Below, in pieces: positions 1,235-44,842 of a stretch of DNA of 64,000 nt. The notes under the pieces were generated by a model. The model saw nothing but the letters and a program-made list of their open reading frames with translations, did not search any database and had not been told where the DNA came from. Within the stretch, counting starts at the first letter, position 1. Each line of letters begins with the position of its first letter. The DNA is from Candidatus Levyibacteriota bacterium (lineage in GTDB: Bacteria > Patescibacteriota > Microgenomatia > Levybacterales > GWA1-39-11), in assembly GCA_050255815.1 (NCBI GenBank), contig JBLMVJ010000035.1, positions 10,727 through 74,726 of the forward strand. The letters run 5' to 3'. A program made the translations under genes and the position numbers.

Positions 1235-3373
1235 TTGACATTATACTTTTACACTGATAAATTTAGACACATGGGAAATAATTCAACCATTATTCTTCTT
1301 AAGAAAATATCTGTTTGGGTACTTTCTTTTGTACTATTCTTCTTCCCTCTTCTCTTTTTAGTAAACGCAACTGATCCATTCCTTTTGCCAAAACAGGTAT
1401 TCCTGGTTATGGCATCTGTAGTCCTGCTGATCCTTTGGAGCGTTATCATGGTCTTTGAAAAAAAGATTATGATCCGGACCAGTCCGTTTAATCTTCCGGC
1501 AGGACTCTTTACTTTAGCAGTACTTATTTCAGCATTCCTCTCCCGGAATATGTATGATTCACTTGCTCTTGCTATTCCGGTGTTGGCTTCTTTCATACTG
1601 TATTTTGTGGCACAAAACACCATATCAAATAAAAAGGATTTACTGTTTGTCTTATCTGCTCTTCTTTTGGGAGGAGCCGTGTCTTCCCTTATCTCAGTTT
1701 TGTACTACCTGAAGATTTACTTCCTTCCTATTCCGGCAATCCAAAGCCAGTACTTCACTACCTTTGGTTCTCCTATCCAGCACATTATTTATATAGTACC
1801 GCTTTTGATTGTTGCCGCCTACTTCCTGTCTAAAGAAGTGAGAGGGAGAAAACCTGAAGCAAACTACAATACTATATTATTTGGCGGACTTACCGGCACC
1901 CTTCTCATCTCTGCCGTCCTCTTAATAGTACAGGTAGTAACTGCACCACAAAAACCACTCTTACTGCCATACACATTTGGCTTCCAGATTGCTACCGCAG
2001 CTATTTCCCAGGACACCACACGCTTCTTAATTAGCCTGCCGTTTGGGTCCGGATTTGGCACATTCTTATCAGACTTTACCAGGTTTAAACTTCCTGATAT
2101 CAATAATGGCCAGCTTTGGGCTGCATCCTTTAGCACTTCTTCTTCTTTTGTCCTGGAGCTTTTAACCACCGTAGGAGTAGTAGGACTTTTAACCTACTTA
2201 TTTATGATTGCCAAGGTATTAAAGAATAGGACAAAAGACACCACCCCATTATTCTTTGCACTGTTAGTAGTGTTCTTAGTCTCATTCTTCCTGCCGCTTT
2301 CTATCATCTCCCTTACCCTTATCTTTATTTTAATGGCGCTGTTTACCAGCACTTTATTCCTGGACCACAGCAAAAATGTATATGATATAAGCCTTTCTAT
2401 AGTAGCTCTAAAACATGGCCTATTCTCTATAGAGGAAACGTCAGGCGCACCTAAGAAAGCTTCAGAATCTTCAAAGGTGCTTCCGATTATTGTAGCGCTG
2501 GTTATCATTCTGGTTGGCGGGTATACCGGGTATCTCTCATTCAAACTCTTGTCTGCAGACATGAAGATGGCAGACTCTTTGTCACAAAGCAAGAGGAACA
2601 ACGGCCAGGCTATTTATGACCTCCAGAGACAGGCGCTCATAGACTTCCCGTACCGCTCTGATTATTACAGGATCTTCTCCCAGATTAACCTGGCTCTTGC
2701 TAACTCTATAGCCGGTGCTGTCCCACAGGGATCTACCCCTTCCACTACGGCACAGGCAACTATTACGCAATTGCTGCAGCAAAGTATTGCAAACGGCAGG
2801 ACTGCAGTAGCCCTGGCTCCTATGAGCTCAGTAAACTGGGAAAACCTTTCCCAAATCTATAGGAGCTTAATAGGGGTAGGACAAAATGCGGGAGAATTTT
2901 CAGTGGCAACCATGAACCAGGCTATCATTTTAGATCCTTCCAACCCACTCCTGAGGGTAGAATTAGGGGGTATCTACTACCAGCTGCAGCAGTATGACGC
3001 AGCCCAAAACCAATTCCAGATTGCAATTAACCTGAAGCCTGACTTTGCAAATGCATACTACAACCTGGGCCATGCTCTTGAAGCAAAAGGAGATCTGAGA
3101 GGTGCAATAACCGCATACCAGGCAGCACAAAGCCTTACCACCAATGATAATGATAAAAAGAGGTTGGATTCTGAAATGGAAGTTATCCTGAAAAAAATTG
3201 GGACAGAGGTAAAACCGGGCACTCAGCCATCAGCAGCTGCTCCATCTGCAGACCAACCACCACTTGGAATAAGTACACCTTCAGCACAACTGCCTAGCCA
3301 AAAAGACCAGGTAAAATTACCTTCACCACCAACTGAAACTCAACCAACAGCCACACCTAAAACTACGAAATAA
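1235..3373 (+). CDS. Polytopic membrane protein, O-antigen ligase/polymerase-like (Wzy_C-like), with C-terminal TPR repeats and a Pro/Thr-rich tail
   Basis: 712 aa with more than 10 predicted TM helices. TPR-like AYYNLGHALEAKGDLRGAITAYQ near the C-terminus. Tandem paralog of 3376..5523. The true start may be the internal Met (MGNNS). Confidence 0.6.
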   Translation: MTLYFYTDKFRHMGNNSTIILLKKISVWVLSFVLFFFPLLFLVNATDPFLLPKQVFLVMASVVLLILWSVIMVFEKKIMIRTSPFNLPAGLFTLAVLISAFLSRNMYDSLALAIPVLASFILYFVAQNTISNKKDLLFVLSALLLGGAVSSLISVLYYLKIYFLPIPAIQSQYFTTFGSPIQHIIYIVPLLIVAAYFLSKEVRGRKPEANYNTILFGGLTGTLLISAVLLIVQVVTAPQKPLLLPYTFGFQIATAAISQDTTRFLISLPFGSGFGTFLSDFTRFKLPDINNGQLWAASFSTSSSFVLELLTTVGVVGLLTYLFMIAKVLKNRTKDTTPLFFALLVVFLVSFFLPLSIISLTLIFILMALFTSTLFLDHSKNVYDISLSIVALKHGLFSIEETSGAPKKASESSKVLPIIVALVIILVGGYTGYLSFKLLSADMKMADSLSQSKRNNGQAIYDLQRQALIDFPYRSDYYRIFSQINLALANSIAGAVPQGSTPSTTAQATITQLLQQSIANGRTAVALAPMSSVNWENLSQIYRSLIGVGQNAGEFSVATMNQAIILDPSNPLLRVELGGIYYQLQQYDAAQNQFQIAINLKPDFANAYYNLGHALEAKGDLRGAITAYQAAQSLTTNDNDKKRLDSEMEVILKKIGTEVKPGTQPSAAAPSADQPPLGISTPSAQLPSQKDQVKLPSPPTETQPTATPKTTK

Positions 3374-3375: not shown

Positions 3376-5523
3376 ATGGAAAGTAAAGATGTGCCGTCAA
3401 TAGTATCAAAGCTGCAGATAGGCGTGTTGTGCACCATGCTGGTATTATTCCCCTTAGCATTTATTCCTAACTCCACTGACTCATTTACCATGGGTAAGAG
3501 CCTAATCCTCATACTGGGGACTTCCCTTCTTATCCTGTTGTGGGCAATTGCATCTATATATAAGAAAGGCTTTGTCTATAAATCCAGCCCATTTAACCTT
3601 CCGGTTGCCCTTTTTGGCGTAGTGGTACTTATTTCCTCCCTGCTCTCCCGCAATATGTATGATTCTCTTGTTGCAGCTGTTCCCGTAGTCTTCTCTTGCG
3701 TATTGTACTTTACCATTTCTTATATGATAAGCAGCAGAAAAACACTTATTTTAGCTATTACCAGCCTTATTGCCGGCGGCGCACTGACTGCCCTTTTAAG
3801 TACCGCTTACTATCTGAAACTTTATTTCCTGCCTATTCCGGGTATTAATAACCAGTACTTTTCCCCGTTTGGGTCAGGCGTACAGGAAGCAATTTACCTG
3901 ATTGCCCTTCTCATGTTCCCGCTTTTCTCCCTATTAAGACAAACAAAGACCAGAAAGCTTACGGTTACGCAGGATTTCCTCATTGAAGCAGGTTTGGGAG
4001 GCGCACTTTTGATAGGGGTAATCTTTATTACCCTTTCCATCATTACTTCCCCAACCAAACCTATTATATTGCCATACACATATGGCTTGCAGATTGCAGC
4101 CGCTACTATTAGCCAGGATATCTCGCGCCTCTTTATCTCATTCCCATTTGGATCCGGCTTTGGCACGTTCTTAAATGACTTTGCCCGCTTCAGACTGCAG
4201 GAGCTGAACGCAAACACTACGTTTGCTACCGCCTACCCATCCTATTCATCATCTTTTGCCCTGGAGCTGATGACTACCACCGGCATCTTAGGCATCCTTT
4301 CTTACCTCTTTATAGTGTTTAAGGCCTTAAAAACCCGCATGAAAGACAGCAATCCATCTTACTTTGGCCTGGTTATCTTATTTATTGTCTCATTCTTCTT
4401 ACCGTTTGGCCTTCCAACTATTGCACTGGTCTTTATTCTTTTGGGAGTCTATTCATCATCCTTATTCCTGGCAAATGACAGGCGGGTACATAATACCAGC
4501 CTCTCACTGGTTGCCTTTGACCAGGGAATTATTTCTACAGAGGATGTGTTGAGGAATGAGCGGGTTAAGTCTGAGAGTATTATCCTGCCGGTTCTTATCA
4601 CTATCTTAGTGGTACTAATAGGAGGATTTGCTTCATTTATGATGGTACGCCTGGTAGATGCAGACACCAAAATGGTTTCCTCTTTGGTTGTACCTGCCGG
4701 TAAGAAGCTCACCATCCAGCAGCAATATGACTTGCAAAGAAATGCGGTAAATGAATTCCCTTATAAATCAGACTACCAGAGGACATTCTCCCAGCTTAAT
4801 ATGAACCTGGCTAACTCTATTGCTGCCAGCCTGCCAAAAGGCGCTACCCCATCAGCAGTTGTACAGCAAAGCGTCAACCAGCTCTTACAGCAATCAGTAA
4901 ATTCAGCCAGAAGCGCTGCTGATATAGCACCGCTTACTTCAACCAACTGGTCCAATCTGGCACAAATTTACCGGAACCTGATAGGCGTGGGCCAGGGAGC
5001 TGACCAGTTTGCCATTGCAGCCATGAACCAGGCAACACTGTTAGACCCAACCAATCCATTCTTAAGGCTGGACTACGGTGGTATTTATTACCAGTTAAGC
5101 CAGCTGGATGCAGCCCAAAACCAATTCCAGATTGCCATTAACCTGAAGCCTGACTTTGCTAATGCCTATTACAATCTGGGCCATGTGATAGAGTCCAAAG
5201 GAGACCTTTCTACCGCACTTTCTCTCTACCAGACTACCCTTTCCCTGGCCGGAAACAATCCAACAGATAAAAAGAAACTCAGTGATGAAATAGAAGCATT
5301 GAAGAAAAAGATTAATGAAACAGCAGCTACTCAACAGCAGCAGACACCGGTAAACCTGCAGACCAGCGCAGGCCAGCAGCAACCTATTGGCATTAACGCT
5401 CCTTCAGCTCAATTTCCAGCACCTAGCAGGCCGGTAAAACTTCCTCCACCTCCTGGTGCCAGCGCTTCTCCGGAACCGTCTCCTTCGGCTGCTCCCAGGC
5501 CTACGGCCACCCCCACACAATAA
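3376..5523 (+). CDS. Paralogous O-antigen ligase-like polytopic membrane protein with C-terminal TPR repeats and a Pro/Ala/Ser-rich tail
   Basis: 715 aa. Aligns by eye with the upstream gene (SPFNLP..LISxxLSRNMYDSL, FQIAINLKPDFANAYYNLGH). It starts 2 nt after the upstream stop. Confidence 0.6.
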   Translation: MESKDVPSIVSKLQIGVLCTMLVLFPLAFIPNSTDSFTMGKSLILILGTSLLILLWAIASIYKKGFVYKSSPFNLPVALFGVVVLISSLLSRNMYDSLVAAVPVVFSCVLYFTISYMISSRKTLILAITSLIAGGALTALLSTAYYLKLYFLPIPGINNQYFSPFGSGVQEAIYLIALLMFPLFSLLRQTKTRKLTVTQDFLIEAGLGGALLIGVIFITLSIITSPTKPIILPYTYGLQIAAATISQDISRLFISFPFGSGFGTFLNDFARFRLQELNANTTFATAYPSYSSSFALELMTTTGILGILSYLFIVFKALKTRMKDSNPSYFGLVILFIVSFFLPFGLPTIALVFILLGVYSSSLFLANDRRVHNTSLSLVAFDQGIISTEDVLRNERVKSESIILPVLITILVVLIGGFASFMMVRLVDADTKMVSSLVVPAGKKLTIQQQYDLQRNAVNEFPYKSDYQRTFSQLNMNLANSIAASLPKGATPSAVVQQSVNQLLQQSVNSARSAADIAPLTSTNWSNLAQIYRNLIGVGQGADQFAIAAMNQATLLDPTNPFLRLDYGGIYYQLSQLDAAQNQFQIAINLKPDFANAYYNLGHVIESKGDLSTALSLYQTTLSLAGNNPTDKKKLSDEIEALKKKINETAATQQQQTPVNLQTSAGQQQPIGINAPSAQFPAPSRPVKLPPPPGASASPEPSPSAAPRPTATPTQ

Positions 5524-5577
5524 GGGTTTAGGGTTTAGTTCACACAAAGAATCGAGCAATCAAAATAAACTCCCACC

Positions 5578-5626
5578 TTAATTTCATCTCTTGAATATGA
5601 AACCATGGAGAAACGAATGAGTGAAC
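5578..5626 (+). repeat. Conserved intergenic element, copy A (TTAATTTCATCTCTTGAATATGAAACCATGGAGAAACGAATGAGTGAAC)
   Basis: Near-identical to 44780-44834 and related to 22700-22752. It lies just downstream of a plus-strand CDS stop. Confidence 0.6.
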
Positions 5627-5827
5627 CACAGGACCCCAAATCAGACAGCTTCAAGCTTTTAGATTCATCCCAAGGGTAATAATTTTTAACTATACCCTAT
5701 ACCCTAAACGCTATTTCTCGAGCTCCTTTGAAATAAAAATATCAATCAAGTCCTTGAGCGAGAAAAATACCGGGAGTCTTTGGCAAGCAAGCAGGTCTAC
5801 GAGTGCGCCAAGAGTTAACGGTACACC

Positions 5828-8271: not shown

Positions 8272-8698
8272 AGTTAAATTGAAAAGATAGAGATATAGCT
8301 GTTACCCAAGATTCCGGAATGAAATGAACTAAATTTGTGTCTGTGTCATCTTGGAAAAAGAATTACGCGGTAATTTCTGAAGCTATGGTTGTATTAAAAC
8401 ATGAGACCCGCCATCTTGTCAAGAGACAAGACTCAAGCTACAAGCTAATAATTATCCTCTTCTCTTACCCTTTTACTGCCCAGCTCTTACATTATTATGG
8501 GAAAGCCACTCCAAAATGATTTATAGCGTTCGAGAAAACGAAGTGACTCGAGTTAATGCTATGAACTATAGACCATTAACCATGAACGTATCCCACTTTT
8601 TTACGAAGGAAAAAAGCAAGACCGGAGTGCCAACGAGGATCTTTACTTTTCGAAAGAAGTGAGAAAAACAAGGTCTAAAGATTAGACCCTATAGTATC

Positions 8699-10557: not shown

Positions 10558-11990
10558 ATTGGACTGCGCTACTAGCGTGGGTGATGGACCCAGTCCGCAC
10601 CCTTGACGAACTTCGGCAGGCGCACCTTGCCCTGATCGGCCATCCCAACATGGGGAACCGCGTTCAGGTGCGTGCGCGCGTGAGGAACTACATCAATCTG
10701 ATGATCGCCACCCAAGGTGGAGGAGCTCCTGCTCCTTGGCACCCTGGCATGGGCGCTCCTGTGGTTCCTCCAACGCCAACACCTGGCCCTGCGCCCGTTC
10801 CTGGTCCTGGCCCTGCGCCCGTTCCTGGTCCTGGCCCTGCGCCCATCGTCCCGCTCGTTCCGGTTGTCGGCTATCGCCCACGCATGTGGACGTACCGCCG
10901 AATGATACGGAGAGCGCTAAACGAGGGCAACACCGCCTGGATGGATACCGAACTCACGGCATGGGGAGACCCTCCGGGAGTCGGCACTCCAGCACAGCGT
11001 GCGTACCGGCTCGAGAACTTCTCGAGGTCACGGCACGGGTGGAACCGCATCGGGCATGATATCCCGGAGCTTGTTCCGCCTGGCGCACCGGCACCGGCAC
11101 CCCGCCGACAGGTGGACTACGGTCCCCTTGGGTGGATCGCAGGTGCTCTGCTGATCGCAGCCGGCGCAGCCGTACTGTTCTTCGCCTTGATTCTGCCTCT
11201 CTCCAAGTGGGGATGGGACCAGAGCTTCGGCGACGACACGGCAGTGCAGCAGCCCGGCAACCAGCCTGGTAACCAGCCCGGCGGCAACAACGGCAACGGT
11301 AGCGGCAACGCGAACCAGCCTGGCAACAACGGCAACGGTAGCGGCAACGCGAACCAGCCCGGCAACCAGCCCGGCAATAGCGGCGTCATCAAGAACTTGG
11401 CCGACGGCCAGTTCCCCTGGACACCGCCCACACCGGGTACCGACCTTGGGAACGACAAGCAGTTCACCAGCACCATCATCGAGCAGGCCAAGCAGGGAGA
11501 CTGGATTCACAGGCTCTTCAACCCTGGCTTGTTCAACGCAGCCAATAACTACGGCGGAGCCGATTCTTGGGCTATTAGCCTGAACGTCGGTCCGAACGCT
11601 GGTGGCAGCTGGAAGGGCGAGGGAGTCTCGGGACGCTTCGTCTACCGTGCTGTGCAGAATCAGGTGGGTTGGTGCCTTGGCATCCTCACCTCGAAGACGT
11701 GGAACAACATCGACCTGAAGAGTCAACTCCTCAGCGGTTCAGACCCCAGTTTGCCGATCGGATTCAACGTCCGCATCGAACCAGGGTCTACCGTGATGGT
11801 GAAGACGAACTCAGGCGAGATCAAGTCCGGCGTCACAAGCGACATGGGTGATATCCAAGTCGTTCTGCCAGACAGCGGGCTGACCACCATCTGCACTGCG
11901 TTCAGCACTGCAGCACCTACGGGTGAAAGCCAGCTTTGGGTGGGACCTCGGGACCGCTCCAAGGACATCAACACGATCGACGCGCGGTAA
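10553..11990 (+). CDS. Single-pass membrane protein with Pro-rich (PGPAPVPG x3) and NGNGSGNANQPGN tandem repeats and a C-terminal beta-rich extracytoplasmic domain. Function unknown.
   Basis: The track gives 10524..11990. I prefer the ATG at 10553, which has a GGAGAG RBS and an ATGA overlap with the upstream stop. TM helix WIAGALLIAAGAAVLFFALILPL. GC about 63%. Confidence 0.6.
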
Positions 11991-20039: not shown

Positions 20040-21434
20040 TTAGGAAAGTTTGCTAACCAGAGGTAATAATCCCTTTGCAGTTTCCATGGTCACGGCTTTA
20101 AACCCAAACTTCTTTGCCTCCTTGATACGTTTTTCCAGGTTCATAACCTTCTTAATCTCTCCCAACAGGCCTACCTCTGCTATGGCAGCAGTTTTAGCAA
20201 GCGATTTTCCTTTCAGGGAGCTTATGATAGACAGGCACACTGCCAGGTCTGAAGCCGGCTCTGATATCTTAAAGCCACCTACTACATTTACGTACACATC
20301 ATACTTATCCAGCGGCAGCTTTCCATGTTTCTGCAGGATAGCCAGCAAGAGTTCCAGGCGTTTCTCTGAAACACCGTTTGCAACGCGGCGGGGAAAAGCC
20401 AGGCTGGAATGGATTACTAATGCTTGTATCTCTACTAAAATAGGTCTGCTCCCCTCCATGATAACTGCTACACAAGAACCGGGGGAAGCAACAGAGTCAC
20501 CCATGAACAATTCAGACAAGTCTGTAATTTGTTTAAGGCCATATTCTTCCATACCAAATATTCCCACCTCTGAGGTATCCCCAAACCTGTTTTTAAATGC
20601 CCGTAGAATACGCACTCCGGTCATTTTCTCTCCTTCCAGGTATAACACGGTATCAACCATATGGGACAACATCATAGGGCCTGCCACCATCCCTTCCTTA
20701 GTCACATGGCCTATGAGAAAAACCGGGGTGTGAGTAGTCTTTGCAAAAGCTACAAGCCTACCCGTAGCATGGCGCACCTGGGGAATAGAACCTGCATAAC
20801 CGGGGACGTCCCCACTCTCCATAGTCTGGATTGAGTCAATGATCAGCAGGTCAAAGTGTTCTTGCTGTGCCTGCTCCAGGGCTAAATCTATGTCTGAGGT
20901 AGCTAAGATAAATAAATTTTCCGAGTTAGTTTTCCTGTCTTTTTGCAGCCTTTGTGCCCGGAGAGTAACTTGCGCTTCAGATTCTTCACCGGTAACATAC
21001 AGTATCTTGCGGGTGGCGGGTAGCGAGTGGCTTGTAGTTTTCTCACCACCTGCTACGTGCCCTTTGCTATCTGCCAGGTTAAGCGCCGTCTGTAAAAGTA
21101 TTGTTGACTTACCAACCCCCGGATCTCCTGAAAGTAAGACTACGGAACCGGGGACAATCCCGGCTCTGGCCTCCTCCCCCAAAACTCTATCAAACTCTGA
21201 GAACCCCGTAGAAAACCGCTCTACCAAATTTACTTTCACATCACTTATCCTGGTCGGCTTTGCTGAGGAAACGAATTTGGAACTGTGACTCTTTGCCCCT
21301 CTGCCCCTCTGACTCTCAGAAGTCTTAAACTCTTTCATGGTATTCCATTCCCCACACTCCGGGCATTTTCCGTACCATTTTTGCGAGTCGTATCCGCAAC
21401 TACTGCAGACGAATGAAATATTAGTTTTAGACAT
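20040..21434 (-). CDS. radA: DNA repair protein RadA/Sms
   Basis: N-terminal C4 zinc finger (CSSCGYDSQKWYGKCPECGEW). Walker A GDPGVGKST. KNRFG motif. Lon-like C-terminal domain. Confidence 0.9.
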   Translation of the reverse strand: MSKTNISFVCSSCGYDSQKWYGKCPECGEWNTMKEFKTSESQRGRGAKSHSSKFVSSAKPTRISDVKVNLVERFSTGFSEFDRVLGEEARAGIVPGSVVLLSGDPGVGKSTILLQTALNLADSKGHVAGGEKTTSHSLPATRKILYVTGEESEAQVTLRAQRLQKDRKTNSENLFILATSDIDLALEQAQQEHFDLLIIDSIQTMESGDVPGYAGSIPQVRHATGRLVAFAKTTHTPVFLIGHVTKEGMVAGPMMLSHMVDTVLYLEGEKMTGVRILRAFKNRFGDTSEVGIFGMEEYGLKQITDLSELFMGDSVASPGSCVAVIMEGSRPILVEIQALVIHSSLAFPRRVANGVSEKRLELLLAILQKHGKLPLDKYDVYVNVVGGFKISEPASDLAVCLSIISSLKGKSLAKTAAIAEVGLLGEIKKVMNLEKRIKEAKKFGFKAVTMETAKGLLPLVSKLS

Positions 21435-21439
21435 ATTTC

Positions 21440-21510
21440 CGAGGGAATTTAGAGTCTAGAATTCAGATTTCAGAATTAAATTTTGAATTCTAAATTTTGA
21501 ATTCTAAATT
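21440..21510. repeat. AT-rich GAATTC/AATTCTAAATT repeat tract between radA and the S1 gene
   Basis: TTTGAATTCTAAATT x2 plus GAATTCAGATTTCAGAATT. Similar tracts at 42785-42840 and inside the 23S insertion at 34490-34560. Confidence 0.6.
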
Positions 21511-22596
21511 CTACCGGTATCCTACGAAGGTCTTCGTAACAATAGGAGATAATACAACTACTCTCTTTTTGGTATCAACTTCTACCACTTCTGCACTTAC
21601 AGACTGTCCTGGTTCATAGGTGGTACCTGCAGGAATCTTGCTGGAAGAAATAAATCCATTTACACCGTCTCCCAGTTTAACAGTCACACCCTTTGACCTT
21701 ACATCTGAAACGGTCCCGGTTACTTTCTCTTCCGGCTTAAACTTCTCTGCTGCTTTAGCAAATGAGTCGTTGAGCAGAGATTTTACTGAAAGGTTTACCC
21801 TCCTGTTCTCTGCGTCTACGCTTAACACTACCGCCTCAAATGCATCACCTTTTTTATATAAATCATTTAAGTTCTCTACCCTCTCATGGGAAATCTCAGA
21901 AATATGGATAAAACCTTCGGTAAGTTTTCCTTCTGTTGCCTGCGTAGTCACATACACACCATATGATGCAACCTGGGAAACAGTTACCGGCACTTTTTTA
22001 TCTTTGGGGAAAAGTTTGCGCAAAATCTCTGCATCAGTTACATATGAAACAGCTTTCTGGGAAAAAATAGCCCTCTTTTTTGTTTTGTCAGACTCAATAA
22101 TTTTTACTTCTATAGTTTTGCCGCTTAGGTTCTCTCCGTCAAGCACCTGTGAGTTAGGAAGAAAACCGCGGATGCCATTTTCTGCTTCAACAAAAAATCC
22201 GCCGCGGGTAGGTTCTAAAACTTTCACGCTTACGGTCAGGTTATCTGCCAGTGCCTTGTCTAAATTAGAGAAAATGAGGTTGCCCAGCGTACGGCGCAGA
22301 GAAACAACAGGAAAACCCTCTTCTGCTTCAGGAGAAATAACAACAGCTTTTACTTTTTCTCCTACTTTCAGCATGGAAAGCAGGTGGTTGAGGTTATTTT
22401 TATCAACTTCCAGAACTAATGCATCTGATTTTGCACCAATATCTAAAAGGATTTCTTGGGGAGTGAGTTTTTTAACGGTTCCTTCTACTTCCTCACCTTT
22501 TTTAAACACCTTAAAACTTGAGGATGACCTGGCCATGAGCTCAGCCATGGAAGAAGCATGTCCTGGATTAGATGCGTTTTTGCTTGAAGTTGGCAC
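21511..22596 (-). CDS. rpsA: S1 RNA-binding domain protein (ribosomal protein S1-like, four S1 repeats)
   Basis: Repeated S1 folds (GTVKKLTPQEILLDIG..., GKTIEVKIIESD..., GFIHISEISHERV..., GTVSDVRSKGVTVKLGDGVNGFI). Confidence 0.7.
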   Translation of the reverse strand: MPTSSKNASNPGHASSMAELMARSSSSFKVFKKGEEVEGTVKKLTPQEILLDIGAKSDALVLEVDKNNLNHLLSMLKVGEKVKAVVISPEAEEGFPVVSLRRTLGNLIFSNLDKALADNLTVSVKVLEPTRGGFFVEAENGIRGFLPNSQVLDGENLSGKTIEVKIIESDKTKKRAIFSQKAVSYVTDAEILRKLFPKDKKVPVTVSQVASYGVYVTTQATEGKLTEGFIHISEISHERVENLNDLYKKGDAFEAVVLSVDAENRRVNLSVKSLLNDSFAKAAEKFKPEEKVTGTVSDVRSKGVTVKLGDGVNGFISSSKIPAGTTYEPGQSVSAEVVEVDTKKRVVVLSPIVTKTFVGYR

Positions 22597-22699
22597 TTAG
22601 TAATTCCCCTTTCATAATTAGAATGATACATTCTACCACAGGAAGAACCTATCCGCAAGGAAATTCCAAAGCTCTTATTTCCCTTCTGATCGATCCCTT

Positions 22700-22752
22700 C
22701 CAATTCCATCACTTGAAACAGAACCCATGAGAAACGAGTGAACGAGCGCCCG
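22700..22752 (+). repeat. Conserved intergenic element, copy C (diverged): CCAATTCCATCACTTGAAACAGAACCCATGAGAAACGAGTGAACGAGCGCCCG
   Basis: Aligns with copies A and B. Followed by a second GTGAGTGAACGAG at about 22793-22806. Confidence 0.5.
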
Positions 22753-22881
22753 GAAAGAACACACATGAGGGACTGTTGCGAAGCGGTTCTTTCAGTGAGT
22801 GAACGAGTTTTGAATGGATGAATGGTTCATCGTGATGGCAGTTTTTGCTCAACTTTTTGCTGCCAAAAAGTTGAAAGAAAC

Positions 22882-23343
22882 CTAAATGAACCTAAAAAGA
22901 ATCACGTAGAGGATAAAAACTGTGGCCACTTGTGTCACTATGCCCCACGGCTGGTCCAGGCGGGAATTAATAAGATGCTGCACTTTATACATCCATTTGG
23001 ACCATTGGGAGAATACATTATTAGTCCGCAAAATAAGGTACGGTGCCGTAATCCAGTCAGGCAGCTGGGCGGCAATAACAGAAGCAAACAAAAGTATACT
23101 GTCTGTCCCCCCTAAAACCCCATGGTACAGTACATAAGCTGACAGAAAGCTAATCCCCACGTCTATACCGGATTCTATGACAAGCGCCTGCTTAGTCTTA
23201 TCCCGGTGGTGGAGTCCGGTATCCCAGTGGGGAATTAAATCTAGCGCAAAATGGGAAACAAAAGAGGCTGGGATTGCTACATATGGGTTGTGGAATTTTG
23301 CGGCAATAAGTGCTGCAACTAACGCGTGTCCGGTGGCTGTCAT
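22882..23343 (-). CDS. Hypothetical integral membrane protein (possibly a DUF457/YdjM-like membrane-bound metal-dependent hydrolase)
   Basis: 153 aa, 3-4 TM helices, conserved His/Asp (HFALDLIPHWD). The assignment is tentative. Confidence 0.45.
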   Translation of the reverse strand: MTATGHALVAALIAAKFHNPYVAIPASFVSHFALDLIPHWDTGLHHRDKTKQALVIESGIDVGISFLSAYVLYHGVLGGTDSILLFASVIAAQLPDWITAPYLILRTNNVFSQWSKWMYKVQHLINSRLDQPWGIVTQVATVFILYVILFRFI

Positions 23344-27983: not shown

Positions 27984-28093
27984 ACCAAGAAATTCAGTAG
28001 AAATAGATAGAAATTCATAGAAACTAAATTGTATTTATTGCTGCACTTCAGTTTCTACCAATTTCAACTAATAGCTACCATTTTCTATGCCTT

Positions 28094-28895: not shown

Positions 28896-29681
28896 ATGCA
28901 TTACCTAAAGATCTTAAAAGCGCTGATAGTCATTAACACCGCATACGCGTTAGAGTACAAGGCGCATTTTGTGGCCCAGGTTTTTGCAAGCCTGGCCTGG
29001 GGCGTATTTTCCGTGGTCAACATGATCCTTTTGACGTACCGCGTCCACTCTGCTTTTGGCTGGAGCAGGAATGAGCTCATCCTTCTTTCCGTTATGGTTA
29101 ATGTAGTCTATGGCATCCACCGTATGTTGTTTGATGTAAACTTCTGGAGATTCTCCCGGATTATCCATTATGGAGAAATGGACATGGTGCTGTTAAAGCC
29201 CGTGGACTCCCAGTTCCAAATGAGCATGTGGATCATAGATATTAGCGGTATCTTCAGATTTTTAGTTGCCCTAGCGCTCACCTTTATCCTGGTTTTTGCC
29301 ATGCACTTTCCTATTTCTCTGACAAGTGTGTTGATTGCCACTATTTTAAGCCTGGCCGGTGTGGTCCTTCTCTATGCTTTCACCTATATCTTCCTAACCC
29401 TCACCATCTGGTTCTCTAACCTCTCTAACCTGATGGGACTGGTGAATAATATCCTTTCTATGTCCCGGTATCCAAAAGAAATGTATGAAGGATTAGGCAC
29501 CTACTTTTTCTTTTTTCTCTTGCCTTTAATTGTTATAATAAGCACTCCTACAAAAGCTCTCATCCAAAAGGGGAACCTGTTAGATAGTCTGCTTTTAGTA
29601 CTCTTTACTATCCTATTTTTTGCAATCTCAAGGGTGTTCTGGAAATTCGCCCTGCGGTTCTATGTCAGTGCTTCAGGATAA
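28896..29681 (+). CDS. ABC-2 family transporter permease (paralog 2 of 4)
   Basis: 261 aa polytopic membrane protein. 1-nt gap from the upstream gene. Confidence 0.65.
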   Translation: MHYLKILKALIVINTAYALEYKAHFVAQVFASLAWGVFSVVNMILLTYRVHSAFGWSRNELILLSVMVNVVYGIHRMLFDVNFWRFSRIIHYGEMDMVLLKPVDSQFQMSMWIIDISGIFRFLVALALTFILVFAMHFPISLTSVLIATILSLAGVVLLYAFTYIFLTLTIWFSNLSNLMGLVNNILSMSRYPKEMYEGLGTYFFFFLLPLIVIISTPTKALIQKGNLLDSLLLVLFTILFFAISRVFWKFALRFYVSASG

Positions 29682-29717
29682 ACAGGAAATTAATAGATAT
29701 TCATAGAAATTAAGAAA

Positions 29718-30587
29718 TTGATTGTAATTACACAATTTAGTTTCCATGAATTTCGCGACCGTAGGGAGCTTATTTCCAAAAATTTCTTTCTTATGTATAA
29801 ATATTTCCGTATCTTCACCAATGTCTGGGGCAAAGCCCTTTCTTACCGGGTCAACTTTATCATGTGGCGTGTCCGTGTGGTGCTCCAACTTCTAACGTTA
29901 TTCTTTTTGTGGTCTACTATTCTCACCAACAGGACTGCTATCTTTGGCTACTCTACTTCCCAAATGCTCACGTACATTTTAGGCACTTCGCTCATTTCTT
30001 CTGTAGTTTTGTCCAGCCGCACTTTTGAAGTAGGAGACCAGATAAATGACGGTACGCTTTCTAATTTTCTGATCAAACCCATGTCCTACATAAAATACTG
30101 GTTCTTTTATGACCTGGGGGATAAAGCCAGCAACATATTTTTCTCTATAATCGAATTAACGATAATCATCTTTCTGTTCCGTCCGCCCCTTTATGTCCAA
30201 ACCAATCCCACCTATCTCATGTTTACCCTGGTTTCCGCGTTTTTAGCATTACTTTTATACTTTTACTTTGGCTTTTTACTGGGGCTTTTAGGATTCTGGA
30301 GCAATGAAGTGTGGGGACCACGCTTTATTTTCTTTATCATCATTAACTTTTTTGCCGGCGCTATGTTCCCGCTGGATGCGCTGCCAAAACAAGTGGTAAG
30401 CGTTCTCCAGCTTTTCCCATTCCCGTACCTTCTATACTTTCCGCTGAAGATTTATTTAGGAAAGATTTCTTTCCCGTTGATTATTCAAGGGCTCTTCATC
30501 TGTTCCGTGTGGATGGTAGGATTGTATTTTATTTGTAAATTTATCTGGTTAAAAGGATTGAAATTGTATGGGGCGCAAGGGAGATGA
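29718..30587 (+). CDS. ABC-2 family transporter permease (paralog 3 of 4)
   Basis: 289 aa polytopic membrane protein with architecture similar to its neighbours. Confidence 0.6.
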   Translation: MIVITQFSFHEFRDRRELISKNFFLMYKYFRIFTNVWGKALSYRVNFIMWRVRVVLQLLTLFFLWSTILTNRTAIFGYSTSQMLTYILGTSLISSVVLSSRTFEVGDQINDGTLSNFLIKPMSYIKYWFFYDLGDKASNIFFSIIELTIIIFLFRPPLYVQTNPTYLMFTLVSAFLALLLYFYFGFLLGLLGFWSNEVWGPRFIFFIIINFFAGAMFPLDALPKQVVSVLQLFPFPYLLYFPLKIYLGKISFPLIIQGLFICSVWMVGLYFICKFIWLKGLKLYGAQGR

Positions 30588-33450: not shown

Positions 33451-33484
33451 AAGAATAACTAAACCGATTTTGCTCCTCAGTCCT
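33451..33484 (-). repeat. Partial duplicate of the 5S rRNA 3' end plus its downstream flank (about 34 nt)
   Basis: AAACCGATTTTGCTCCTCAGTCCTGGCCTTGACC at 33451-33484 versus AAACCGGCTTTGCCCTTCAGTCCTGGCCTTGACC at 33581-33614. Confidence 0.6.
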
Positions 33485-33523
33485 GGCCTTGACCTTAGGC
33501 GCGCAGTCCCAAAGGGGGACGAG
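33485..33523. repeat. Motif TTAGGCGCGCAGT-hairpin(GTCCCAAAGGGGGAC)-CGAGCACCGCAAGT. A second copy is at 44883-44923.
   Basis: Conserved 13-nt and 12-nt flanks around different hairpins in the two copies. CGAGCACCGC also occurs at 12044-12053. Confidence 0.6.
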
Positions 33524-33596
33524 CACCGCAAGTCAAGCAACTGGAATGGAAACAAAACAGTACAAATGTAGTAGATGATAAACCGGCTTTGCCCTT

Positions 33597-33719
33597 CAGT
33601 CCTGGCCTTGACCTATCTTCCCATGTTGTGTAACAACAAAGTATTGTGAGCGCTGACGTGTTTCACTTCTCTGTTCGGAATGGGAAGAGGTGGGACCACA
33701 TCGCTCTAAAGACCAAGAC
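33597..33719 (-). rRNA. rrf: 5S ribosomal RNA
   Basis: The reverse complement contains GTGGTCCCACC..CCCATTCCGAACAGAGAAGTGAAAC..GCCAGGAC, matching conserved 5S blocks. Ends are approximate. Confidence 0.8.
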
Positions 33720-34000
33720 TCAAGAGCAAAACCGGTAAGATCCGAATCTACTCGAATAGTTTGGGGTAACTTCTAGGCTACCCCATTCTTCTCGAATATT
33801 TCGAATTAACATTAACAAACACTAGCGCATTCGAATTGATTCGATTTAAATTCGAACCATTCGAGAATGATTTCTTAGAATCCACGCTATTTGGATCGAC
33901 CTATTAGTACAACTTCGCTGAAACAGTTACCTGTCTTACACGTGTTGCCTATCAACCTGATGGTCTCTCAGGGGTCTAAAAGAGATCTTATCTTAGGGTG

Positions 34001-34033
<33 letters not shown>

Positions 34034-34268
34034 CATGGAAATCTAGCTACCCAGCAGTGCACTTGTAAGTACAACTGGCACACCAGGGATTTCCTCACCC
34101 CAGTCCTCTCGTACTAGGGGCGACTCCCTTCAAATCTCAAACGGTTGTCCTGGATAGAGTCCGAACTGTCTTACGACGTTCTTAACCCAGCTCGCGTACC
34201 TTTTTAACTGGCGAACAGCCAGACGCTTGGGAGCTTCTCCACCCCCGCGCTAAGATGAGCCGACATCG

Positions 34269-34699
34269 CTGTCAATCCAATCAGTAATTAAGAAAGACTT
34301 AAAAACTTAAAACTGATGGTGATACTCTTGTTACCAAGAGCCTCTGACTATACCTTCATCCGCCAACTGGCGGAGCTAGTCGTATGATACAGATTATAAA
34401 TTTCTCTTTATGAGATGAATCCATATCTCACCCTCTCACCTATGCTGGTGAGGGGTTCAGTCGATAGGGTCCAAAAGAAATTTAAAATTCAGAAGTTAAA
34501 ATTCAGAATTAAATTCTTAATTCTGAAATCTGAATTCTTAACTCTATTTGAACCTCGGTATTACCCTCTTGTGTTCAGAAAGTAGGGTTTCACCGATTTG
34601 GACTAGTTATTTAAATTATTAGTACCTTGTTTTTTGACTCAAATACTAATAAATACAGGCAAGAGTATTACTACTCAGGCGCCCCGATATTTTCATATA
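34269..34699 (-). other. Group-I-intron-like insertion of 431 nt with no ORF in 23S, at the E. coli position equivalent to about 2500 (GGCACCU^CGAUGUCGGC)
   Basis: Exon junctions inferred by alignment to the recalled E. coli 23S. The 5' exon ends in U and the insert ends in G. It contains a GAATTC-rich AT tract and a CTCACC..GGTGAG hairpin. Confidence 0.5.
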
Positions 34700-34742
34700 A
34701 GGTGCCAAACCGCATCGTCGCTGTGGACGCTTGGATGCGATC

Positions 34743-34775
<33 letters not shown>

Positions 34776-35229
34776 AAGCTACGTCCCAACCACTAAGGAA
34801 CGCAGGATCACTAACACCTGCTTTCGCACCTGCTCGACTTGTAGGTCTCGCAGTCAAGCTGGCTTGTGCGTTTGCACAATACGCTCCGATTTCCGTCCGG
34901 AGTTAGCCAACCTTTGTACGCCTCCGTTGCACTTTAGGAGGCAACCTCCCCAGTTAAACTGCCCACCAGACACTGTCTTTTAGCCGTATTTTTATGCGGC
35001 ATTAAAGTAATGCTCACTCATCTTAAAGAGAGGTATTTCATTGATGACCGAAGTCTCCCTCCTATACTAAACAGTTAAAATAAGCTTGCAAATGTCAAGC
35101 TACAGTAAAGCTCCCGGGGTCTTTTTGTCCTAGGACAACCAGGCCGCGTCTTCACAGCCATCTCAATTTCGCCGTGTAAATGTTCAAGACAGTTACTCAG
35201 TCGTTCTACCTTTCGTGCGGGTCGGAACT

Positions 35230-35547
35230 CCATTGTTTTAATGTTCCAACATGGAACCTCACAGTCGCCTGTGAGATCGGACTATATCTTTCCCTTACCA
35301 AATTGGTGAGGGATCTAGCGTCTAGTCTCTGAGGGTTTTCCGATAAATCGGAATCTTCCCTGCTGATTGGCTCCACCAAGCAGATTTTTACTCTTACGAG
35401 TACTGTTGGATACTGAGCTGTTCCAGCAAATAGCTAGATTTTACACTCATTTAGGTTAACGATTGTGTTCTTACGTGACTGTTTTGCTTGTTCCTGATGT
35501 GTATCCCGATTAGATCGGGACTCGGGCAAGTTGATTTGACCCAAACC
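35230..35547 (-). other. Group-I-intron-like insertion of 318 nt with no ORF in 23S, at the E. coli position equivalent to about 1917 (GUCGGGU^AGUUCCGAC)
   Basis: Flanking exon sequence CCTTGTCGGGTT | AGTTCCGACC. The insert ends in G. It contains TCCCGATTAGATCGGGACT and TTCCGATAAATCGGAA hairpins. Confidence 0.5.
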
Positions 35548-37360
35548 AACCCGACAAGGAACTTCGCTACCATAGAACAGTTATAGTTACTGCTGCCGTT
35601 CACCGGAGCTTTAGAAAGCGGCTCCACCTTGCGGTTTCACCACCCACTATTGACTTACCGGCACTGGGCAGGTGTCAGCCCCTATACGTTACCTTTCGGT
35701 TTTGCAGGGACCTGTGTTTTAGATAAACAGTCGCTAAGTAATCTTTTGCTTAACCTGGATGTTACTCCAGGCAGGGCATCTCCCATAGGTTACGCCCAGC
35801 TTTTGTTGCCGAGTTCCTTGAACATTTGTCTCACGGTCGCCTTAGTCTACTCGACCAATCCACCTGTGTCGGTTATGCGGTACGGCAAAATATAGCACTC
35901 CTCACGAATCTTTTCCTGAAGACTGAAACTTACGATCCTCACCCTACTTTCTTGCGATTTCAGATTTGCATTCGCCACTTAATTAAACACTTTGACGGAT
36001 TTGCCCATCAAAACTATCTTATGGCTTGGACCCTGTTTACAGGGCGATCCTTTCCACTCTTGTCCATCCTTGAGTAATAACGCACTATACTCTGTAGCAG
36101 AATATTAACTGCTTGTCCATCCGGCTACCCCGCGCTTTATGACGGGCCACCGTTAGGAGCCGACTAACGCTGCGCTGACTTACATTGCGCAGCAAACCTT
36201 GGATTTTCGGCGGACGCCGTTCTCAGGCGTCATTCGCTACTCATGCCGGCATTCTCACTTGTAAACGCTCCACCATACCTTACAGTACAGCTTCGCTGCA
36301 TTTACGACGCTCCCCTACCACTTGCTCCGATAAATCGGAGTCAAATCTCCATCGTCGGTATTAAGCTTAATCCTCGATCATTTCCGGCGCCATTCTCCAA
36401 TGTCGACTAGTGAGCTGTTACGCTTTCTTTAAAGGATGGCTGCTTCTGAGCCAACCTCCTAGCTGTCTATGGAAAATGACTTCCTTATCAACTTAGCTTA
36501 AATTTAGAGACCTTAGATGGGAGTCTGGGCTGTTTCCCTTTAGACCCACGAGCTTAGCCCCGCAAGTCTGACTCTCTATTAAGTTTTTACGGTATTCGGA
36601 GTTTGATTGATCCTGAAAAGTTGCCTCTCCAGAGACCATTCAGTGCTCTACCCCCGTAAAAACATACAAAAGGCTATACCAAAATATATTTCGGGGAGAA
36701 CCAGCTATCTCCAGGTTCGTTTAGTATGTCACCCCTTACCACAAGTCGTCTCAGATCATTGCTGCGATCACGAGTTCGGGCCTTCCTCATCCTTTCGAAC
36801 AAGTTCACCCTGCTCATGGTAAGCTCACCTGGTTTCGGGTCTTTTGCAATGCGCATTTAGGTATCCCAGTTAGAGATCGCTTTCACTATGCCTCCCCCCT
36901 CACCTTTCCAACGAAAATTCCAACCTTTGTTTTAAATCGAGCTTGTTTCGATAATATTTCAAAGTGGTAATCCTCATTAGAATGGTGAGGGGTTAGACTG
37001 CGCAATACAAAAACTCACCGGCTCATTCTTCAATAGGCACGACGTTATACCCTTGCGGGCACTTCGTCTGCTTGTTAGCTAATAGTTTCAGTAACTCTTT
37101 CATTCCCCTCCCGGGGTGCTTTTCACCTTTCCCTCGCGGTACTAGTTCACTATCGGTAGATGTTGATATTTAGCTTTGGAGCGTGGTCGCCCCGGCTTCC
37201 CACAGGGTTTAATCGTACCCCATGGTACTCAGGAACAGGCAAGAAGTGAAAATCATTTCAAATACGGGACTATCACCCTCTTTGGTCTCTTTTTCCAAAA
37301 CGTTCTTCTATGATTTCCATTTGTGACTTCTTTTGCATTTAAGCAAGCCGTCCTACAACC

Positions 37361-37660
37361 CCCCTCACCTTTTTATCACTAACCTTTTTAAAAGTTCTTG
37401 CCAAGCTTTTGCGCGCTTCTTAAGCGCCTGCTCTCTTCTAAAAGCTAATTTATAAGAAGTATATGCTTCATAATAAATAAGCTCCCATGGCAAAAACTTT
37501 TTAGTATATATAGACTTTCCTTTATTATGGTCCGTAAATCGAGTTTTAAGATCTTTTGTTGAACCAATATAAAACTGGTCGAACTTTACACTCTTAAGAA
37601 TATACGTGTAGAACATAAGTCTATTATAGTTATTTAAGTTAGGAACAAAAAGGTGAGGGG
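37361..37660 (-). mobile_element. 300-nt insertion in 23S domain I, bounded by a perfect 14-bp inverted repeat (CCCCTCACCTTTTT / AAAAAGGTGAGGGG), encoding a GIY-YIG nuclease. An IVS-like or mini mobile element.
   Basis: Located between the conserved 23S blocks AGTAGCGGCGAGCGAACG and GGGTGATAGTCCCGTA. The terminal inverted repeats were read directly. Confidence 0.6.
37365..37616 (-). CDS. Standalone GIY-YIG nuclease domain protein (YhbQ/UPF0213-like, 83 aa) embedded in the 23S rRNA insertion
   Basis: YTYILKS..FYIGSTKDLKTRFTDHNKG..E has the GIY-YIG layout. Same strand as the rRNA. The stop codon lies inside the left inverted-repeat arm. Confidence 0.7.
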   Translation of the reverse strand: MFYTYILKSVKFDQFYIGSTKDLKTRFTDHNKGKSIYTKKFLPWELIYYEAYTSYKLAFRREQALKKRAKAWQELLKRLVIKR

Positions 37661-38078
37661 TTTGAGCTGTTCCGCGTTCGCTCGCCGCTACTGACGGAAT
37701 CTCTGTGATTTCTTTTCCTCGGACTACTTAGATGTTTCAGTTGGTCCGGTATCCCGCCGACTACTAATATATTAATCTTGCGACTAATAACTTCATAGCA
37801 GGCTCCCAGTTAAACTGGGGGGTTTCCCCATTCGGACACCACCGGATCATAATGTCTTCGGCCATTCCCCGGTGATTTTCGCGAGCCAGATGCGTCCTTC
37901 TTCGGTCAACACCTCCTAGGCATCCACTATTAGCATGAATCAAATAGCGTAGATTCTAAAAAACCAATTCATTAAAAACCATGCCTCGGCTTGAAACATG
38001 GAAAATCCGCCACCCGGCGGATTTTTTTAATCCTCCGTCCCGATTAGATCGGGACTTCGGCCTAGTTGTTTGTTTGTA

Positions 38079-41853: not shown

Positions 41854-42789
41854 TTATGCTTTTTGCATGGTGAGCCAGCGCTCTATATCTAGTGCTGCCA
41901 TGCAGCCAAATCCTGCGGCAGTTACTGCCTGGCGGTACCTATCATCCTGGACATCCCCGGAAACAAAAACACCTTCTATATTAGTCCTCACCCGTTCTTT
42001 TGCGCTTACATACCCGCTTTGCGTCAAATCTACCCCTTTAAAGATAGATGAATTTGGCGTATGGCCAATAGCCACAAATATACCGTCTATAGGCATTTCT
42101 GTTACTTCCTGGGAGACGGTATTCTGGATTTTAACCTTCTCTACTTTGTTCCCCCCCAGTACTTCAACAATTTGAGAGTTAAGCATAACTTTAATTTTTG
42201 GGTTATTTTTTACTTTATCCTGCATAATCTGGGATGCCCTAAAGCTGTCCCTTCTATGGAGCAAGGTAACTTCTGCAAAATTGGTGAGGAAGTTTGCTTC
42301 CTCCATAGCAGAATCCCCTCCGCCTACAACTATGATCTTTTTTCCCCTAAAAAATGCCCCGTCACAGGTTGCACAGTATGAAATACCGCGCCCGGTCAGC
42401 TCTTTTTCACCCGGTACGCCCAGTGTTTTTGAATTCTCACCGGTAGCCAGGAGAAGGGCTTTGCCTTTATAGGTCTTCCCGTCCGCTGTTATAGAAAACG
42501 GAGAGGATGCCCCTGTCAAATCTGTAGGATCAGCATCCGCATTCACGAACGTTACTCCAAAACGCTCTGCCTGGCTTCTCATTTCCATCATAAGCTGGGG
42601 TCCCTGTATTCCTTTGGGAAAGCCCGGGAAGTTTTCAACCTCCGTAGTAAGCATGAGCTGGCCACCCCAAGTCTTCCCTGCAATGATAAGAGTTTTAAGT
42701 CCGGCTCTGGAGGTATAAATTCCTGCAGTGAGGCCGGAAGGACCGGATCCTATGATGATTACATCAAAAATGGGTAATTCAGAATTCAT
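41854..42789 (-). CDS. trxB: Thioredoxin-disulfide reductase
   Basis: FAD site IIGSGPSGLTAG, redox-active CATCDG, NADPH site VVGGGDSAMEEA. Confidence 0.9.
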   Translation of the reverse strand: MNSELPIFDVIIIGSGPSGLTAGIYTSRAGLKTLIIAGKTWGGQLMLTTEVENFPGFPKGIQGPQLMMEMRSQAERFGVTFVNADADPTDLTGASSPFSITADGKTYKGKALLLATGENSKTLGVPGEKELTGRGISYCATCDGAFFRGKKIIVVGGGDSAMEEANFLTNFAEVTLLHRRDSFRASQIMQDKVKNNPKIKVMLNSQIVEVLGGNKVEKVKIQNTVSQEVTEMPIDGIFVAIGHTPNSSIFKGVDLTQSGYVSAKERVRTNIEGVFVSGDVQDDRYRQAVTAAGFGCMAALDIERWLTMQKA

Positions 42790-42840: not shown

Positions 42841-42841
42841 C

Positions 42842-44736: not shown

Positions 44737-44779
44737 GTGCTATTCTCTTCAACTCTGCGAAATCATATAAACAACTTCC

Positions 44780-44834: not shown

Positions 44835-44842
44835 AAAAAAAT

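Follow-up and report, generated by a model that had tools for sequence, protein, structure and literature searches.

What are the three closely similar segments that lie between genes in a 64,000-nucleotide (nt) stretch of a Candidatus Levyibacteriota genome (assembly GCA_050255815.1, contig JBLMVJ010000035.1, positions 10,727 to 74,726 of the forward strand; this whole stretch is called the window below)? A first-pass annotation described them as an intergenic element of 55-70 nt and offered a small RNA, a leader with a ribosome-binding site (RBS) or a miniature repeat as explanations. They are almost certainly the 5' arm of the members of a conserved structured family. In complete members, which measure ~190 nt (~170-230), an outer stem carries a long rod with a variable apex, and a U-tract and a second conserved hairpin follow. 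The 55-70-nt unit is thus the part common to the three window copies, not the whole element.

The similarity that drew attention to these segments has been confirmed. Copies A (5575-5633), B (44778-44834) and C (22697-22755) are homologous, and all three lie on the plus strand in spacers (nhmmer E ~1e-20). The first-pass annotation had crossed two letters and their coordinates, as the sequence that it called B lies at 44778-44834 and the one that it called C at 22697-22755. Pairwise blastn aligns A with B at 84% identity over 68 nt (E 8e-15), B with C at 76% over 72 nt (E 1e-9) and A with C at 74% over 54 nt (E 6e-7). A three-copy nhmmer profile run against the window recovers the same three matches only (E 4e-20 to 6e-22), with no further copy below E=2; the first-pass annotation had put such a recurrence in 64 kb far above chance.

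A structured family in Levybacteria

By itself, the core shared by the window copies is not a structured unit, since lengths of 55-90 nt give folding z-scores of +0.3 to +1.0 on both strands. The larger unit is seen in related genomes, sampled through protein anchors as 80 Levybacteria loci of 20 kb around the M23 peptidase gene (1.36 Mb). In these loci, nhmmer found two further core copies (L018 and L095), both in GCA_964406795.1. One occupies the same M23/TPR spacer as copy A, and the other lies between ABC ATPase and permease genes. Their alignment with copy C shows conservation that runs past the core into a variable hairpin with A- and T-tracts, a second purine-rich block, GAGAG-CTTTT and another hairpin. 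A diverged fourth full-length copy (L047) was spotted by eye. Covariance model R1, built from these four copies (C, L018, L095 and L047), gives 22 full-length matches (E <= 3e-4), which come from 14 Levybacteria genomes in addition to that of the window, and model R2, rebuilt from the R1 matches, gives 23 matches in 15 of the ~80 genomes sampled. Family-model E-values range from 1e-7 to 1e-30, and conservation therefore extends beyond the window to other Levybacteria genomes.

The fold is built on a simple rule. An outer stem, P1, of 7 bp (consensus UCGYCAC/GUGRCGA) leads into a rod in which covarying 2-bp Watson-Crick (WC) steps alternate with invariant 5'-GA-3'/3'-AG-5' tandem mismatches. 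The rod is followed on its 3' side by AGAG-CUUUU and then by hairpin 2 (GUACUUUUG-loop-CAAAAGUAC). RNAalifold on four copies returns a long hairpin with P1, short helices, P3 and 2-bp steps parted by GA on both arms; P3 reads AAAC/GTTT in C, GAAT/ATTC in L095, GAGT/ACTC in L018 and AAGC/GCTT in L047. For example, 5'-GUGAACGAGC-3' set antiparallel to 5'-GUGAGUGAAC-3' yields the series WC-WC-G.A-A.G-WC-WC-G.A-A.G-GU-WC. The rod is thus a regular tandem G.A mismatch array in a YGAR context, which explains both the NNGA periodicity of the core and its accidental 'GGAG...ATGA'.

This fold is conserved through compensatory change. In an alignment of 22 sequences, 92.3% of 742 cells at paired positions are paired, compared with 66.0% when partners are shuffled and 41-46% when they are slid by 1-3 columns. 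Double-sided changes are present in 37 of 39 pairs, compensatory cells number 220 against 64 in shuffles, and none of 500 shuffles reached any observed measure. Helix 10, which forms hairpin 2, is 97% paired, with double-sided changes in seven of its eight pairs. When copies are folded individually, their minimum free energy (MFE) structures recover 65% of the consensus pairs, and the mean folding z-score of family copies is -3.7. GA dinucleotides are kept on both arms, and the internal-loop residues of both arms are 71-76% purine. Copies are 35-75% identical, even inside one genome, yet retain the fold, indicating that it is being maintained.

Some Levybacteria carry several diverged copies, with within-genome identities of 48-75% in L079, 60% in L063, 68% in L088, 50% in L018 and 50% between C and B in the window. 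Two types of apex can be distinguished. The first is a simple A/U-flanked hairpin (window C, L018, L047, L095, L038 and L026), and the second, not found in the window copies, is a conserved G-rich CAGGGGGAUUCCUCA-hairpin-UGAGGAGGGGGUGAAAUCACCCG (L079, L063, L088, L091, L061, L033, L023 and L064). By eye, AAUCACCC of the G-rich apex could pair either with the 5' GGGGGAUU or with an adjacent GGGUGA, the two being mutually exclusive, and sequence differences among these copies look compensatory for the distal pairing. The G-rich apex could be a ligand- or protein-binding domain. A ribozyme, riboswitch or other known RNA was rejected for the apex, with no Rfam match (seven complex-apex loci gave tRNAs only, and L088 9500-9850 gave nothing above 16 bits at E <= 10) and with hammerhead boxes that misfit when checked by eye.

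Searches of other collections agree with a family that has not been catalogued. At the gathering threshold, Rfam 15 detects large-subunit (LSU) rRNA, a group I intron, 5S and tRNA only in the window, and in the three spacers at E <= 10 it returns far-sub-threshold chance matches only. The copies are fragments neither of a known insertion sequence (IS) nor of a tRNA. A phage or plasmid origin was set aside, as there was no blastn match in INPHARED or PLSDB, and two conserved-motif patterns had 0 matches in IMG/VR. The degenerate core pattern CATCWCTTGRAN{8,16}GAGRAAYGARTGA has 0 matches in the GTDB species-representative genomes, a collection that does not include the window's own genome. In JGI metagenomes, where the window's genome is likewise outside the set, it has 2, alike in pattern alone and attributable to chance. 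Literature searches on structured RNAs of the Candidate Phyla Radiation (CPR), on miniature inverted-repeat transposable elements (MITEs) of Patescibacteria and on tandem-GA repeats found nothing relevant.

The shorter relatives of the core once proposed at 1033-1090 and 8531-8552 are statistically unsupported. With at most one mismatch, GTGAACGAG occurs 11 times in the window against 7.1 expected, and as an enriched word or binding site it was discarded, being enriched neither in the window nor in 1.4 Mb of loci. The segment at 8531-8552 has no family-model match, and its blastn comparison with an element-bearing orthologous spacer gives E 0.09. The GA-rich stretch at 1013-1122, at the 3' end of an open reading frame (ORF) at 28-1041, holds two copies of GTGAACTAACGAAGTTAG, which form small hairpins around GAACGAGAGCGAAGCGACC; the latter includes the stable GCGAAGC mini-hairpin motif. 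This stretch recalls the rod style of the family and scores 12 bits with the family model (E 0.7).

Occupancy and orientation

Copy C is the complete member in the window. Under the covariance models, its full-model alignment spans 22696-22884 on the plus strand and covers the 5' arm, apex hairpin, 3' arm, U-tract and hairpin 2, with 156.8 bits for R1 and 83.7 bits (E 1.5e-16) for R2; its own MFE fold contains 27 of the 34 consensus pairs. The 5' arm (22706-22752, plus strand), equivalent to the core first described, begins with the P1 strand CCATCAC (22706-22712) and continues with GAGAAACGAGTGAACGAGCG and the NNGA periodicity. It is followed on the same strand by the apical hairpin GAGGGACTGTT GCGA AGCGGTTCTTTC (22767-22793), which an RNA fold places between A-rich and T-rich tracts, and by the 3' arm (22794-22838, AGTGAGTGAACGAGTTTTGAATGGATGAATGG...GTGATGG), which pairs with the 5' arm so that GA steps lie opposite GA steps and which matches the module-2 hidden Markov model (E 3.9e-9). 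The plus-strand tail (22842-22873) comprises a T-tract (22842-22846) and hairpin 2 (CAACTTTTTG-CTGC-CAAAAAGTTG, 22850-22873). The neighbouring genes, for a 153-aa protein and S1, are both on the minus strand. Copy C is therefore antisense to both and lies upstream of the S1 promoter, so that the position upstream of S1 given by the first-pass annotation stands, with the qualification that S1 runs opposite to the copy.

Comparison with relatives shows that spacer occupancy varies between close lineages. The relatives' contigs are Logan contigs retrieved via flanking proteins, which are mostly 74-90% identical to those of the window. At site C, the spacer is 285 nt long in the window and 63-155 nt in four related lineages (S1 63-88% identical). 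A block of ~208 nt (about 22674-22881) is present in the window and missing from L003-L009 and L095 in the site C alignment, and the element span of 22696-22884 almost exactly matches this lineage-specific block. From these alignments, copy C was probably gained as a complete element in this lineage. All three copies lie in lineage-specific extra DNA, and the family is dispersed in many Levybacteria genomes. Among the explanations first offered, the miniature repeat therefore comes closest; a structured nucleic acid is also supported, albeit as a ~190-nt hairpin, and the RBS or short-ORF proposal is unsupported, as discussed below.

Copies A and B are remnants that carry the 5' arm. Copy A, in its full extent at 5558-5633 (+), follows the stop of a TPR membrane protein gene in a convergent spacer of 304 nt, before a LysM/M23 peptidase gene. 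In relatives, this spacer measures 6 nt (L012, M23 90% identical) or 92 nt (L013/L014, 79%). Copy A scores 10.6 bits with R2, which is not significant (E 1.5), and has no 3' arm. The equivalent spacer downstream of the M23 gene holds a complete element in L018, L026, L031, L033 and L038. Copy B (44778-44834, +; nhmmer E 6e-22) is preceded by a GT2 glycosyltransferase gene, whose stop is at 44736, and followed by a terminator hairpin kept in relatives; this spacer, too, is convergent. Once the crossed letters are mended, the earlier placement of both copies after plus-strand stops is correct. The site B spacer is 215 nt long against 67 nt in relatives (GT2 86% identical), and alignment with L010/L011 shows the same terminator hairpin directly after the stop, with copy B carried by ~95 extra nt in the window. 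The R2 match at 44780-44963 reaches 50 bits, but P1 is missing and the MFE fold of this sequence retains only 4 of 26 consensus pairs. Copy B is degenerate, a good 5' arm beside a pre-existing terminator hairpin. Given their 84% identity, A and B are either a truncated subfamily or decaying relics, and we favour the latter. A solo relic of the 3' end is present at L023 9815-9847.

Several other features surround copy A. An 18-nt inverted repeat of telomere-like heptads (5523-5540 and 5688-5705, AGGGTTTAGGGTTTAGTT / AACTATACCCTATACCCT), 89% complementary and 147 nt apart, brackets the copy. The motif has 5 matches in the window against 0.9 expected, 3 of them in the copy A spacer. As a part of the family it was rejected, being local to that spacer. 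Upstream, two tandem paralogous genes (1235-3373 and 3376-5523) encode multi-pass membrane proteins of 712 and 715 aa with C-terminal TPR repeats. These paralogues share ~71-75% DNA identity in blocks, the pair is kept in relatives (L013), and a hairpin element directly follows the pair in several genomes.

The orientation of the element follows the GC-skew strand. With the element masked, the purine-rich strand is the negative-GC-skew (C-rich) strand of the locus in 22 of 23 copies. Only one copy departs from this, with its purine-rich strand on the G-rich strand. It is the second partner in a head-to-head arrangement in L018 (minus strand 11241-11428, plus strand 11425-11607), where the two elements share 4 nt within a 496-nt TPR-M23 spacer. 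L023 and L026 have the opposite skew relative to the M23 gene, and their elements are likewise reversed with respect to M23, which shows that the bias follows skew rather than synteny. In the window, GC skew is negative in 16 of 16 4-kb bins regardless of gene orientation, and the 23S-5S rRNA genes and tRNA-Ala are on the G-rich strand. If leading strands are G-rich, the purine strand would be the lagging-strand sequence, i.e. the leading-strand template. By comparison, a co-oriented gene ends a short way upstream of 16 of 22 copies, where 55% would be expected given the strand bias (p = 0.07).

Several observations bear on which strand folds. For 20 of 23 copies, the lower MFE belongs to the sense strand. 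The GA of both arms and the loops of 71-76% purine make sense only for a purine-rich single strand; on the complement, pyrimidine-pyrimidine mismatches would take their place. The strand could act either as RNA, with the rod and U-tract as a terminator or stabiliser, or as single-stranded DNA (ssDNA), as a recombination substrate. The strand bias itself could reflect either fork-coupled insertion, as in IS200/IS605 (PMC5027513), or selection against a stable hairpin on the lagging-strand template.

A possible mobile element or host device

The element belongs with the bacterial intergenic palindromic repeats of the ERIC/REP/BOX type. It stands out among them by its periodic tandem-G.A rod, by copies that diverge strongly yet keep the fold and by its replication-strand polarity. 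ERIC/IRU repeats (enterobacterial repetitive intergenic consensus) are ~127-bp imperfect palindromes. They resemble it as dispersed non-coding imperfect palindromes of 100-200 nt that are confined to spacers, are present or absent at equivalent spacers and have size variants by internal insertions (here the simple and complex apices), and in that their fold is maintained. To our knowledge, ERIC has no associated transposase, and we know of none for this element. However, the two share no sequence similarity and occur in different phyla (the element in CPR bacteria). The Levybacteria element also differs in its tandem G.A rod, its extra 3' hairpin, its far more diverged copies and its orientation locked to the GC-skew strand, which is not, as far as we know, a described property of ERIC.

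Other repeats share part of this profile. The REP/BIME and REPIN repeats, which RAYT (Y1 HUH) transposases mobilise, and the non-autonomous repeats derived from IS200/IS605 also form intergenic hairpins that act as single strands, often at gene 3' ends. A REP, however, is a palindrome of 20-40 nt with a conserved GTAG-type head and a REPIN joins two of them; neither feature was found for the element. Their near-identical within-genome populations and REP-flanked RAYT gene were not found here either; the unit is ~190 nt with a single long rod, and no Y1 domain occurs in the 18 window proteins scanned. BOX of Streptococcus pneumoniae and Correia/NEMIS of Neisseria are likewise modular dispersed repeats with an RNA fold when co-transcribed and with partial copies; the modules of the Levybacteria element are its 5' arm, apex, 3' arm and tail. 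Correia, however, ends in inverted repeats and duplicates a TA target, the BOX modules have no sequence relationship to the element, and neither has a GA-step rod or strand bias. Integron attC sites, too, conserve structure over sequence, function in one folded single strand with conserved non-paired bases and directly follow ORF stops. In chromosomal integrons, the foldable attC strand has a preferred replication orientation. The element nevertheless lacks a cassette array, an integrase among the scanned window proteins and R''/R' boxes (RYYYAAC/GTTRRRY) in the alignment, and its neighbours are housekeeping genes in conserved synteny.

On balance, we lean towards a new family of ~170-230-nt strand-asymmetric intergenic hairpins, present in a subset of Levybacteria, that is gained and lost, mobility included. 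The elements would be non-autonomous mobile DNA that now and then inserts into spacers. The purine-rich strand would have to fold when single-stranded, whether to propagate the element or to affect the host, and upon sense transcription the rod and U-tract may form a strong hairpin at an RNA 3' end that terminates or stabilises the transcript. Insertion is favoured because repeated independent loss in every relative at three sites would be less parsimonious.

Several points weigh against this account. Mobility is deduced from presence and absence, with no transposase, target-site duplication or target motif found; for instance, no transposase, Y1 domain or integrase was detected among the 18 window proteins scanned. 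Comparison of filled with empty junctions at C and B brings out no clear direct repeat, although with relatives as diverged as these (74-88% protein identity) breakpoints cannot be placed to the base, and the P1 inverted repeat (CCATCAC...GTGATGG in C) lies ~30 nt inside the inserted segment as part of the continuous covarying rod. No source of copy C was identified in the 64 kb of genome examined. Within-genome copies (48-75%) are far more diverged than in recently active MITEs, whose near-identity is approached by A and B alone (84% over 68 nt), and this divergence fits long-lived functional paralogues equally well. The sampled loci are syntenic rather than independent, and some copies, such as those in the M23-TPR spacer, may be orthologous. 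The covariation alignment was fitted to the model, a concern that the slid-partner and own-MFE controls lessen without removing. Replication direction is deduced from GC skew and from the strand of the window's rRNA and tRNA-Ala genes rather than from a mapped origin. Further, the co-orientation with preceding genes (p = 0.07) is not significant and backs a 3' untranslated region (UTR) weakly. As to the acting strand, the count of G-U against A-C (36:24) is not significant either, folding z-scores do not single out one strand, and the antisense strand also folds well.

The more credible competitors keep the fold and change its purpose. A structured RNA encoded by the host and kept by selection without mobility, whether as multi-copy small RNAs or as a cis-acting 3'-UTR or terminator module, is a rather unlikely but serious candidate. 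Such an RNA would explain a structure strongly kept at 35-75% identity even within one genome, the symmetric GA-rich internal loops typical of RNA motifs, the conserved U-tract after the rod and hairpin 2 loop, and the elaborate apex CAGGGGGAUUCCUCA...UGAGGAGGGGGUGAAAUCACCCG common to many members, and it suits the 16 of 22 copies that follow co-oriented stops. It sits poorly with copy C and three other copies that are antisense to both neighbouring genes, with the lack of a conserved promoter upstream, and with an orientation tied far more closely to GC skew (22 of 23) than to neighbouring genes. Nor does it predict truncated relics, differing occupancy between relatives with 86-90% identical flanking proteins or a patchy distribution (15 of ~80 genomes in the sampled 20-kb loci). 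As for a terminator, 4 nt (AGAG) separate the rod stem from CUUUU, and a consensus scanner called none in the three spacers. A somewhat weaker case can be made for a narrower form of the mobile account, a non-autonomous element moved as ssDNA at the replication fork, by an HUH enzyme of IS200/IS605 or RAYT kind or by another ssDNA recombinase, with the fold as substrate. IS200/IS605 members are a documented case of replication-coupled orientation bias (PMC5027513), and the near-absolute bias seen here (22 of 23 copies on the same GC-skew strand) is of that type. The strand-asymmetric fold, the variable occupancy, the relics and the head-to-head pair in L018 are also in line with such movement. 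However, the polarity, with the purine strand on the C-rich strand, differs from that expected of the inserted IS200/IS605 'top' strand (PMC5027513): if leading strands are G-rich, the better-folding strand is the leading-strand template, opposite to the IS608 active-strand rule. Moreover, no Y1/HUH transposase was seen in the scan of 18 window proteins, no tetranucleotide stands out as a conserved target and cleavage sites at the ends are unrecognisable. The rod also exceeds IS200/IS605 and REP hairpins by far in length and elaboration, and within-genome copies are too diverged for a recently active population.

Two further explanations are much less likely. A family of small proteins or leader peptides, in which the core supplies a promoter, a Shine-Dalgarno (SD) sequence and the start of short ORFs (MSERP... 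peptides), is very improbable. The GGAG-ATG arrangement noted at the outset is real in A and B, is absent from C, which has GAGAAACGA-GTG, and recurs in L018; GGAG(G) precedes the ATG by 5-7 nt in A, B and L018, and peptides begin MSE, MNE or MSD in five copies. The predicted peptides, however, are 7, 14, 17, 20 and 27 aa long and alike over about five residues at most, and the copies fall out of frame with one another through one-base indels. The SD-ATG arrangement is missing from L047 and from most of the rest of the family, and across 22 members no ORF is conserved in frame, length and sequence on either strand. Both the 'SD' and the 'ATG' lie inside the rod, where the intervening stretch is partly the 5' strand of a covarying helix and ATGA combines a two-base-pair step with the invariant GA step after it. 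Related readings were rejected alongside: candidate -10/-35 boxes of a promoter are unconserved in C and in the 5' flanks of the family, and nothing is conserved among small ORFs, including an antisense type I toxin. Finally, a degenerate tetranucleotide repeat makes up the core's 3' half and GTGAACGAG is not enriched, which might suggest chance similarity or low-complexity (GARY)n with no biological unit. This can practically be dismissed given the nhmmer values of ~1e-20, full-length matches to 1e-30 elsewhere and covariation far above both controls.

More tentatively, the element may represent a new class of single-strand-acting CPR element, with a rod of tandem sheared G.A pairs and an orientation dictated by the fork, be it mobile or a host device. 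If mobile, it would be a replication-coupled element with an enzyme that reads the GA-step rod; if a host device, it would act on transcription against replication or on the leading-strand template. Genomes of CPR/Patescibacteria are small and tightly packed, and the element costs ~200 nt per copy where nearby spacers measure 6-90 nt. A 34-39-pair fold kept across copies 35-75% identical points to strong constraint, and the regular alternation of 2 bp and tandem G.A is an unusual and easily testable structural motif. The near-absolute GC-skew orientation links a non-coding element to replication in bacteria not yet grown alone. In the literature, no paper was found that describes dispersed repeats or lineage-specific structured RNAs in CPR bacteria. 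The covariance model lets annotators label such spacers, and explains spurious 'MSERP...' ORFs and over-long intergenic regions in metagenome-assembled Levybacteria genomes.

Other features of the window

The 23S rRNA gene (33883-37949, minus strand) is 4067 nt long compared with a 2925-nt model. A group I intron (35258-35526, minus strand; 80.5 bits) accounts for part of the difference, and the remaining excess length implies further insertions. The gene is flanked by 5S and tRNA-Ala(UGC), with no 16S detected beside the tRNA. A 487-aa ORF without a Pfam match (38605-40068) lies where 16S would adjoin tRNA-Ala, and the rRNA genes appear unlinked. Just downstream of 5S (33600-33717, minus strand), a 36-nt direct repeat (33460-33495 and 33579-33614, 89% identical), one copy of which overlaps the 5S 3' end, suggests a partial 5S duplication.

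Two other dispersed repeats are present. An AT-rich family based on GAATTCAGAATT/TTCTAAATT units has 70-nt copies that are 61-77% identical (21429-21526, 34476-34545 and 42773-42842), and one of these lies inside the 23S span, possibly in an rRNA insertion. A 65-nt direct repeat (29678-29742 and 48520-48584, 91% identical, GAAATTAATAGATATTMATAGAAATTAAGAAATTGATTGTAATTRCACAATT), with shorter copies at 28000-28027 and 43823-43850, occurs in spacers upstream of genes and could be a common promoter or operator. A sequence that resembles it, GATAGATATTAATAC, follows the ABC ATPase stop in L095.

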